From Tubulanus polymorphus (lineage: Eukaryota; Animalia; Nemertea): 64,000 nt of DNA. Within the stretch, counting starts at the first letter, position 1. Every line of letters begins with the position of its first letter. Under the pieces are notes generated by a model. It was not told the DNA's origin and searched no databases. It saw nothing but the letters and a program-made list of their open reading frames with translations. Where the stretch lies: assembly GCF_964204645.1 (NCBI RefSeq), contig NC_134028.1, positions 5,146,001 through 5,210,000 on the forward strand, given 5' to 3'. A program made the position numbers and the translations under genes. This document shows positions 58,001 through 61,000 of the stretch, one piece after another.

Positions 58001-61000
58001 ACTTGTGCCTTACAAAAAATGTGTTACTGGAAAACTCTAGTCTAGAAAAAAAAATCAGGGAGAACTTGAGGAATTTAGATAATGCTATTGACCCCGTGTT
58101 TCTTTATCAGTACATGATTTCATGAAAAATGAATGAATTGTAACATTCTAAACCAAGACATTTCTCTAATTCGCTCGGGGAATTATATATAATCACATGG
58201 AAAAATCAGGGAAAATTCACATTTTCAAATGGGCGGAAAGTGTCCACCTGGCCTGTTACTTTTGCCTCAGCCTTACTACTATGAACCCTGTGTCACTGGA
58301 GTAATAGATTTACGCAGGACTGAGACTGAGCATTTTCTGGTTTTACTTTTTAGGCGTCGTTTCAACAGTCGTACCGGATTCACAGTTTAAGATATTTATT
58401 GGTGGATTGCCGAACTACTTAAACGAGGATCAGGTAAGTGATTCCGCGATAAGTGTTTATGGGGTGTATGGCTCAGCAGGCTGACAGATTCAGCGGTGAC
58501 TACTGTAAAGTTTGCGCTTCATCCATAAAATTAAGTCTGAATACAAGACTTGCGGGTAATCGGACTTTGACCGCGTAAACTTCATCAGTCAGTCGATTTA
58601 GGGAACCGCTCGTATTTTTCTGCGATATGTGTGTGCACTTGTTAACAGGTTAGGTTTGTTTGTAACTATCCCTCTTTCTCTCTCGACGGTAAGTATGATC
58701 AAGGTAGGTGAGAATTGCAGGTCACGAAGCAAGGGGAATAATGTGTGTGTCAACCAGAGGCCGACCTCTCCCACAAAGTCTACCGACAGGCTTTCTAGTT
58801 TCAGGGTTTATTTCAGCCTCTTCGTTCGAAGGTTTTGCCCCATATTTCTATCTTTTCGAAAACTAGCGACTAAACATCGAACGCGATGTGTATTTTCCAG
58901 CTGCATTTTTTCAGGAAATCTCTTGCAGGCGTTTCTTTTCAGACCCAAAAACGAATTCATTTAATTTGGAATATTTCGTTTCTCTTTCATTCGATCTATT
59001 ATTTACGTAAAATATGTTTTCAGGAGGAAATACTAATTTTGATAATATGATTATTATATTTCGATTTCTCTTATTGTTCGTCGGATTTCGAAGCATTGCG
59101 AGACACACGCTTCCGTTGCAGGTTCTATTTTCAGGCGTTTGATAGTAAAGAACTTGAAAATAATCTGCTCAGCGCCGAAAAAAAAGATATCGATGCTCTA
59201 GATATAACAAATATCGTTTAATCTTCATTCGAATATGAAAAGAATAATTCAAAATAGAAACTTCCGAATAGTGATATGAAATTATAATGTAGAAACTTTA
59301 CCCATTATAAATTAACGCTGAATTTTAGTACTTTATCGAAGGCCTTTGGGTAAACACAACACATTATTATACATAATGCTTTATTACTGTACAGGCTGTT
59401 ATTACAAATACTGATCATATTTATTTTTTCTTCCCCAATCTTTGTACGTAGCTTAGGGGAAGAGGGTGATAAAATAAAGCCAACCCTCATGTTGTTAAAC
59501 ACACAATACTGTCTCGTGACATCCGTGGCTTGAAAGGCAAGTGGTTTGAGTGTGTCTATGTTCAATCTCTCAAAATAAAAATTGTCTTTTTGTGAAAAAA
59601 AACGCGTTCTGTGAAACAGTAAGTAGAAAAAATGCGCTAAACGAATTCTAAAATCAGAGCTCCGGGACTTTCTCTGAATTTCTCATCTTACTGGGTTTCT
59701 CAGAAAATGTGTTACACTTACGCGGTATCTTGTTTCACAATAATAACTTGTCATAGTGCAAATATTTCTACACATCTATTCGAGCGTATATAGGGTACCG
59801 TTTCATAAGTACCAGTTATCAAATTTGGTGGATTTTAAGTTGACCGGCAGCATTCTTTACATATATAAGAACATAAAGAATGATTATTGCGGTAGTGACT
59901 GTAGCATATTTTCGTGAGATGCCTTATAGAAATTATTTTCTGTAGCTCTGATGTAGATATAGAGAGAAGGGGGCCCCTAGTGTGACAATAAATAAGTCCC
60001 ATGTTCTACTCATATATTGAGTTTAGACACTATTTAGTTGGTGGTGTAATATTGAGTTGCATGTTATTGATGAATCACGGATCTTTACATTATTTGTTGG
60101 CTCGCCGCAGTAAGTTTCGTTCCGATGATCAAATTACGGATTGCTTCGTGATTCTGAATTCGTACGGATATTCGATTCGTAAACAATAAAAGATACTTCA
60201 TAGATCCAGCAAATATGTTGTAAAGGTCCCGGTTGTAAGCTTCGGTAAATAACACGTATTTCTTTTCTTTCAATTGTAGGTGAAGGAATTGCTGATGTCG
60301 TTCGGGCCATTGAAAGCATTTAATCTCGTGAAGGACAGCGCTACTGGTTTGAGTAAGGGATACGCGTTCTGTGAATATCTGGATGTTAGCATTACCGATG
60401 TGGTAAGTATCATCAGAAAGTACCTAATTTACTGGTACTACTAGAAAATTATTTAAACATTTGATTCGTCCTTATTTGGTACTGGTCTGCTTGCAAAACC
60501 ACTGAAGTCGGATGAATAATTTTAAAATCATTTAATTCCTAATTTCAGGCGTGTCAGGGGTTGAACAATATGCAACTGGGAGATAAGAAATTGATTGTCC
60601 AACGAGCTAGTGTCGGCGCGAAGAATGCACAGGTAAGATACATCAACTTAACAGAAATCTTTTCGCTTGCTTCGGGATGGTTTTTTCAACGGCATGAATT
60701 TGTATTTATAGCAAGCAGCAGTTCAGCTACAGGTGCCGGGGTTGAATCTAAGTTCGGCGAGTCAGACATTGACCGAGGTTTTGTGTTTGATGAACATGGT
60801 CGTACCAGAAGAGCTGGAAGATGAAGAAGAGTACGAAGGTAAACGATACGTACCGAAACAAAAAAGGCGCGCTTTTCATGAAAAAACAAAATACGATCAG
60901 CGATTCATGCATAAATGTGTTTCGATATTTCAGATATTTTAGAAGATGTTCGCGAAGAATGCAGTAAATATGGACTAGTGAAGAGTATTGAAATTCCGCG

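Follow-up and report, generated by a model that had tools for sequence, protein, structure and literature searches.

U2AF defines nearly every 3' splice site, and its dose must therefore stay steady. To our knowledge, an array of acceptor-like sites within a U2AF gene itself has been known from two nematodes only. In C. elegans and C. briggsae, uaf-1 exon 3 is said to contain a stop, to lie close to where RRM2 begins and, as an included exon, to carry some ten sequences that match the 3' splice-site consensus; its RNA is reportedly kept in the nucleus, and the array is reportedly kept in the second species without sequence conservation (as reported by Zorio, Lea and Blumenthal 1997 and MacMorris et al. 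1999). The accessible part of PMC2762039 describes a short isoform, uaf-1b, in which the UHM and just a part of RRM2 are present. For human U2AF2, the available text of PMC4402522, PMC8091538 and PMC6547761 describes a PTC exon in intron 5 that has a GC donor and pyrimidine-rich flanks, and depletion of U2AF35 represses this GC-donor PTC exon and raises U2AF2 mRNA (PMC4402522, in excerpt). Decoy exons that bind U2AF and promote intron retention are reported for SF3B1 intron 4, OGT, ARGLU1 and DDX39B in the sections available of PMC6097662, and nuclear retention of mature RNA is promoted by U2AF65 bound to it (PMC6199362, in part).

The locus described here lies in the ribbon worm Tubulanus polymorphus, in a window of 64,000 nt (the whole stretch of DNA analyzed, numbered from its first letter). 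The host gene and the first elements of the intron concerned are as follows:

55068..61448, + strand: coding sequence of U2AF2 (U2AF large subunit), 14 exons, 494 aa, from 13 RNA joints and protein identity
58354..58433, + strand: exon 9, ending at residue 305, 14 residues into RRM2 (292-361)
58434..60279, + strand: intron 9, 1846 nt, phase 0, longer than any other of the gene (next 617)
60280..60402, + strand: exon 10 (VKELL...), from RNA joints
58792..59134, + strand: array of 10 acceptor-like motifs, from motif count, shuffles and a weight matrix
58649..58714, + strand: four donor-like sites (58649, 58689, 58704, 58708), each matching the consensus at 7-8 of 9 positions

The gene had been named as U2AF2 in the original prediction, and correctly so, the translation being identical to the NCBI Tubulanus polymorphus U2AF large subunit (P0001) at 494/494 residues. 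All 13 introns are joined in two RNA-like runs, X2 and X3, which are not on record as RNA and are treated as such because both carry all 13 exon joints. The array thus belongs to a U2AF large-subunit gene and falls near the start of RRM2, after residue 305. This is like uaf-1 exon 3, which reportedly has the same host gene, the same position near the RRM2 start and about ten acceptor matches. Here, too, there are about ten sense acceptor matches above chance. Unlike uaf-1 exon 3, where the array reportedly lies in the included exon, the array here is in an intron upstream of a short exon that has a conserved branch motif before it, a conserved stop within it and a conserved GC donor at its end; the product seen is full intron retention.

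All ten Py-tract+YAG motifs of the array were recovered where they had been placed, ending from 58798 to 59134, six of them as TTTCAG within 345 nt, and a G follows 6/10, in agreement with the earlier "most". All lie on the sense strand, with no antisense TTTCAG in intron 9. The chance expectation of well under one TTTCAG also stands, since the window's own frequency gives 0.27 per 343 nt; the Poisson probability of at least six is 4e-7, or ~1.5e-4 when corrected for all windows on both strands. Across the 64-kb window, the maximum count of TTTCAG per 345 nt is six on the + strand, reached by the array, and two on the - strand. Dinucleotide shuffles of intron 9 (n = 200) gave 0.9 TTTCAG versus the six observed, and none reached six. 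When scored with an acceptor weight matrix built from 70 real acceptors (13 from U2AF2 here, the rest from related loci), 6/10 array motifs exceed the lower quartile of real sites and three exceed the median. By this matrix the array is the densest 350-nt stretch of the window on either strand (six sites; next three), which sets it apart from the background density of the window, and the other 12 introns of U2AF2 hold two such sites in 2390 nt. The presentation of TTTCAG as the hexamer of real acceptors held only in part: RNA joints place it at 60548, 60933 and 61316, but it serves only 3/13 acceptors of the gene, and for 44085 as a real acceptor the reading frame is the sole support. Likewise, the pyrimidine tracts are present but short, with the motifs at 58798, 58816, 58900 and 59023 falling below the lower quartile of real acceptors.

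DNA depth over the array is flat at 32.7, i.e., single-copy, and neither a tandem period nor an Rfam match was found, by which a repeat-family fragment (the other counter-explanation raised beforehand) and a known structured RNA are both ruled out. A structural role of the array RNA was likewise rejected, as 98/100 shuffles fold equally well or better (z +1.64, weakly structured). An additional TTGCAG/G (the slash marking the splice position) ends at 58720, before the array. A CU-repeat run (58671-58685) also precedes it, as such runs do in the introns of two related loci (L017, L008), and is a possible PTB-type site. At the donor-like cluster 58649-58714, no RNA joint is found among those listed, and by eye the cluster is not alignable in relatives; an acceptor-like AG ends beside it at 58648, so that 58649-58688 could be a second cryptic exon of 40 nt. 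Elsewhere in the window, four TTTCAG lie within ~390 nt at 11536-11926, a stretch that is not outstanding by the acceptor matrix.

Where the original prediction had taken the array as a stand-alone element, we find it instead to be the upstream arm of a module. The array lies just ahead of a stop-codon exon with a GC donor, overlooked previously, which forms the core of this module:

59452..59536, + strand: cryptic poison/decoy exon, 85 nt, from a leave-one-out profile (E 1.1e-8) and splicing in relatives
59410..59415, + strand: branch-point motif ACTGAT, near-invariant columns of alignment A2, predicted branch A 59414
59420..59451, + strand: pyrimidine tract of the cryptic exon, rich first in T and then in C, with its weak acceptor TAG, from alignment A2
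59537..59542, + strand: non-canonical GC donor AAG/GCAAGT, from alignment A2

This exon starts 317 nt downstream of the array, behind an AG-free zone of 55 nt, and its acceptor has a matrix score of 1.3 versus a median of 8.9 for real acceptors. The branch motif is kept in 8/8 relatives tested and AG/GCAAG in 11/11 genomic rows of alignment A2. Read in frame, the exon encodes L-R-G-R-G-stop, with the TGA at 59467-59469. As another 67 nt separate the stop from the end of the exon and five junctions follow downstream, decay of the exon-included mRNA is predicted; such a conserved cassette, its in-frame stop followed by further junctions, has the makeup of a poison exon.

With respect to conservation, metagenome contigs scanned with exon 10 gave 287 candidates, of which 172 were confirmed and the best 80 kept. 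A complete intron at the same codon is present in 18 of these best 80 loci. Eight of these introns bear the exon (L008, L009, L017, L031, L034, L039, L051, L055); they measure 1.5-5.3 kb and exceed the other measurable introns of the same loci. The exon is also found in five partial introns (L007, L052, L066, L076, L080), so that the same exon occupies the same intron, always on the sense strand, in 13 genomic loci among the best 80 as well as in the window. The loci share a layout in which a branch motif, placed 30-39 nt ahead of the AG, is followed by a T-then-C tract, TAG or CAG and then C-x-x-AGG, a stop usually within six codons, and AG/GCAAG 39-131 nt later. Exon length accordingly ranges over 39-131 nt across loci, with branch motif, tract, acceptor, stop and GC donor kept. 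The combined pattern turns up a single time in each locus, in sense only, and has no other match in the 275,604 locus bases or the window, although these matches arise partly by construction because the pattern was written from these loci. A profile made without the window row finds the window exon at E 1.1e-8 in 64 kb; one restricted to the rows of corals, insects and the fish-like and decapod-like loci finds it at E 2.3e-5, and a bilaterian-only profile finds two coral copies at E 2.3e-5 and 1.8e-4.

The proteins of two exon-bearing loci (L034, L055) best match those of stony corals, with exon 10 of L055 identical to that of Orbicella and Montipora; three (L008, L031, L066) match insect proteins, and L001, L017, L021, L039, L051 and L052 are closest to spiralian proteins. 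L080 matches vertebrate proteins weakly, and its exon-10 ending is of what we take to be the teleost type, hence "fish-like locus." Judged by sequence, the exon is common to corals, insects, the ribbon worm and the fish-like locus. It is absent from 10/18 complete introns, namely, those of three rotifer-like loci and of seven short-intron loci of about four kinds (L045; L047, L050 and L053; L065 and L069; L079), in whose introns of ~60-490 nt the exon profile has no match. L068 showed no exon match in the 5.2 kb searched. Two loci (L020, L043) are without the intron, and an intron of 78-111 nt can be deduced from eight amniote-type read-through proteins, from which it follows that U2AF2 can dispense with the module. 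The preceding intron of L020 is long (1614-2994) and has no match to the exon profile. The rotifer-like loci L029, L046 and L073 have an intron of 592-790 nt at this place versus ~55 for their other introns, and together with L040 they carry their own conserved candidate poison exon of 108-144 nt with a GT donor; TTTTAG runs lie downstream, rather than upstream, of that exon.

Turning to transcripts, intron 9 is retained in otherwise spliced RNA of Tubulanus polymorphus, and this long, retained intron holds a cryptic cassette, which is the setting of a decoy exon. One X2 contig (58406-60306) spans the whole of intron 9 at depth 316 versus 838 for the spliced joint, and X3, from a second study, has four intron-9 pieces at depth 3-6 versus 79 for exons; the extent of retention thus differs widely between the two. 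The X2 bins wholly within introns 1, 2 and 7 are at 0 in the records listed, intron 8 has only repeat cover and intron 13 has one 197-nt piece at depth 7, the small U2AF2 introns being too short to judge from depth bins. These contigs have no strand and rough depth, and they drop rare forms. Two further runs (X9, X10) share one identical 132-nt spliced contig with many differing letters and are uninformative on the intron. The reading frame of the retained RNA stops after 16 intron codons. Exon 9 to exon 10 is the sole joint listed in 58300-60420; among the joints listed for the X2 and X3 contigs, in which rare forms are dropped, there is none to the 59452-59536 exon or to any array AG. A loose branch motif 14-48 nt upstream accompanies 0/10 array AGs versus 6/13 real acceptors of the gene. 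The absence of joints at array AGs, the lack of nearby branch motifs and the retained intron all fit the earlier designation of the sites as decoys. None of the 18 listed variant places in intron 9 (X1, X2, X3, X8) falls in an array motif or the exon module, which says nothing on constraint because under two were expected there.

Splicing of the exon is seen in relatives, with no joint listed in Tubulanus polymorphus, where contigs drop rare forms. In a spliced contig (L001), a 68-nt version is joined to exons 9 and 10 and encodes P-R-G-R-G-stop. Two otherwise spliced contigs (L021, L058) have the exon joined to exon 10 with the upstream intron attached (<200 nt in the contig), while L037, from the same gene as L021, still contains the intron's 3' end. 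A protein of Cryptotermes secundus in NCBI (P0297), one among 190 proteins with the exon-9 motif, ends in EDQ-LRYRG, the peptide predicted from L066, and its cluster mate P0320 ends identically.

These data bear on a reading that we hold to be unlikely, in which the array sites are real alternative acceptors that, joined to exon 9, create long poison exons (400-740 nt) reaching to the GC donor with the remaining array inside, an arrangement like that reported for uaf-1 exon 3 of C. elegans; such exons would be quickly destroyed or nuclear, and hence not assembled. It would account for three array sites scoring above the median real acceptor while the conserved acceptor scores only 1.3, and it is consistent with the human case, in which U2AF2 poison-exon RNA makes up 57.5% of pre-translational RNA versus ~5% in RNA-seq (PMC8091538, available text), from which it follows that poison-exon forms are easily missed. 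However, X2 has no array joint and its unbroken contig crosses the array at depth 316, the array AGs stand without nearby branch motifs, and the exon as seen in three spliced relatives and two proteins is compatible with use of the conserved downstream acceptor.

Conservation in orthologs had been proposed as a check in the original prediction. With each lineage represented by a single locus and the window added (nine in all), we observe 77 sense versus 7 antisense TT[TCG]CAG in 14.5 kb upstream of the exon and 15 versus 13 in 10.5 kb downstream. The motif is denser upstream than downstream in 9/9 lineages, window included, and without the window the upstream counts are 67 sense versus 7 antisense. 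TTTCAG by itself follows this distribution (43 versus 4 antisense upstream, 7 versus 8 downstream) and is denser upstream in 8/9. The array sequence is not alignable between phyla. The matrix gives a less uniform result: over the last 800 nt before the exon, the scores of the window and of 6/9 relatives beat 300 shuffles (P of 0.04 or less), and those of L017, L031 and L039 were not above shuffles. A strict branch motif, chosen after inspection of the alignment, accompanies 6/67 array sites in relatives versus 8/24 real acceptors and 8/8 cryptic exons; with a looser motif, the difference between array sites (17/67) and real acceptors (11/24) was not significant (P = 0.075).

Were only the poison exon functional, the array would be a by-product of U-rich composition and relaxed purging, and retention would reflect slow splicing of a long intron. 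We regard this as very improbable. The lack of array sequence conservation between phyla and the 3/9 relatives that are non-significant by the matrix fit such a by-product, as does the fact that intron 9 is the longest of the gene, unspliced RNA being commoner for long introns. Against it, the excess holds up against same-strand dinucleotide shuffles, is absent downstream in the same introns, and lies on the same side of the exon in 9/9 lineages.

The same counts bear on the identity of the sensor. It is conceivable, if improbable, that the module is a regulated unproductive-splicing switch that answers to PUF60, RBM39, PTB, hnRNP C, TIA or a stress signal and not to the level of U2AF. CU-rich runs precede several arrays, U2AF is a predicted binder of the array, and cross-regulation among U2AF-related genes is reported in the available text of PMC4402522, all of which would suit another sensor. 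The enriched motif, on the other hand, has the terminal CAG read by U2AF35 and is not a plain U-run, its enrichment is confined to the region upstream of the exon, and the host gene is U2AF2 itself.

The reading that we favor, and consider rather probable, is that the array and the weak-acceptor, GC-donor stop exon in a retained intron form a U2AF dosage sensor through which excess U2AF silences its own mRNA. It builds on the observed anatomy, its conservation, the retention of intron 9 here and the splicing of the exon in relatives; intron detention plus decay is the likely route of dosage sensing. At low U2AF levels, binding would be limited to the strong acceptor of exon 10, the whole intron would be removed and full-length protein would be made. 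With U2AF in plentiful supply, the ten branch-poor acceptor mimics and the cryptic exon's weak acceptor would be occupied by it too. The unproductive complexes may then tie up the exon-9 donor, leaving the intron, or its array-bearing 5' half, in an RNA that would likely be detained in the nucleus. Where the cryptic exon is spliced in, the stop at codon 6 would cut RRM2 and lead to nonsense-mediated decay. Array and stop-codon exon together likely form a very old feedback brake on U2AF2 production.

Compared with the exon of human and mouse U2AF2 intron 5, as described in the available text of PMC4402522, PMC8091538 and PMC6547761, the module likewise has a stop-containing cassette with a GC donor in U2AF2, but it occupies another intron: human intron 5 has its counterpart in intron 6 of the present gene, which measures 322 nt and in which no retention was observed, and intron 9 of the window corresponds to human intron 8, since PMC4402522, in the part available, assigns the four-residue alternative donor to exon 10. 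In the accessible portions of these three papers, the mammalian poison exon comes with no mention of an acceptor array, a comparison made by description. The decoy exons of PMC6097662 (available sections) resemble the present case in an intron of >1 kb, a conserved non-coding cassette and multiple competing sites; they bind U2AF and have three outcomes (skipping, inclusion with decay, and retention), as the dosage-sensor model proposes here. Unlike the present case, however, they are from vertebrates and from genes other than U2AF2, and here a long upstream battery of sites is added. Our literature search, thin on subscription papers, returned no description of this exon outside nematodes and mammals, and the available text of PMC12709185, PMC13247117, PMC3460187 and PMC12179342 holds nothing on the cryptic exon.

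An array alone repeats the nematode precedent; the novelty lies in the link between the array and a GC-donor poison exon whose sequence can be recognized in corals, insects, a nemertean and a fish-like locus. Because the exon is alignable among corals, insects, the ribbon worm and the fish-like locus, the device would date to early animals. We give even chances to a common history, in which array and GC-donor poison exon are one U2AF self-sensing device inherited from the coral-bilaterian ancestor, nematode uaf-1 exon 3 is derived from it, and amniotes shrank the intron and rebuilt the GC-donor poison exon in, or moved it to, intron 5. If true, the exon would be among the oldest sequence-recognizable non-coding alternative exons in animals, and its sensor array would be kept by motif density rather than by sequence. 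The array AGs, branch motif, weak acceptor and GC donor are exact, mutable parts with which one can test the long-standing idea of U2AF counting the sites it binds, and can ask how feedback of this kind persists, disappears or shifts from one intron to another.

Further splicing variation was observed at or near the same junction: stick-insect isoforms (P0271-P0276, P0317, P0318) have five extra residues (FFTSQ) at the exon 9/10 junction, a louse protein (P0319) continues after EDQ with an unrelated 27-residue tail, pointing to other splicing at the same intron, and the otherwise spliced L013 keeps the preceding intron (709-1335). Within U2AF2 of the window, two short in-frame exons, 56153-56191 (39 nt) and 56351-56398 (48 nt), extend the proline-rich linker before RRM1 and are spliced in both X2 and X3, and intron 8 holds a multi-copy repeat fragment at 58040-58290 (DNA depth up to ~2400 versus 32, with many loose ends). 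The neighborhood includes a long (TA)n microsatellite at 12970-13810 (GC of 0.135 in the 13001-14000 bin), an apyrase (CANT1-like) gene at 43031-45365 on the + strand, a tetrahydrofolate dehydrogenase/cyclohydrolase gene at 49481-51825 on the - strand, upstream of and opposite to U2AF2, and a lysine-rich ORF without Pfam match at 62781-63248 on the - strand, which converges on the 3' end of U2AF2.
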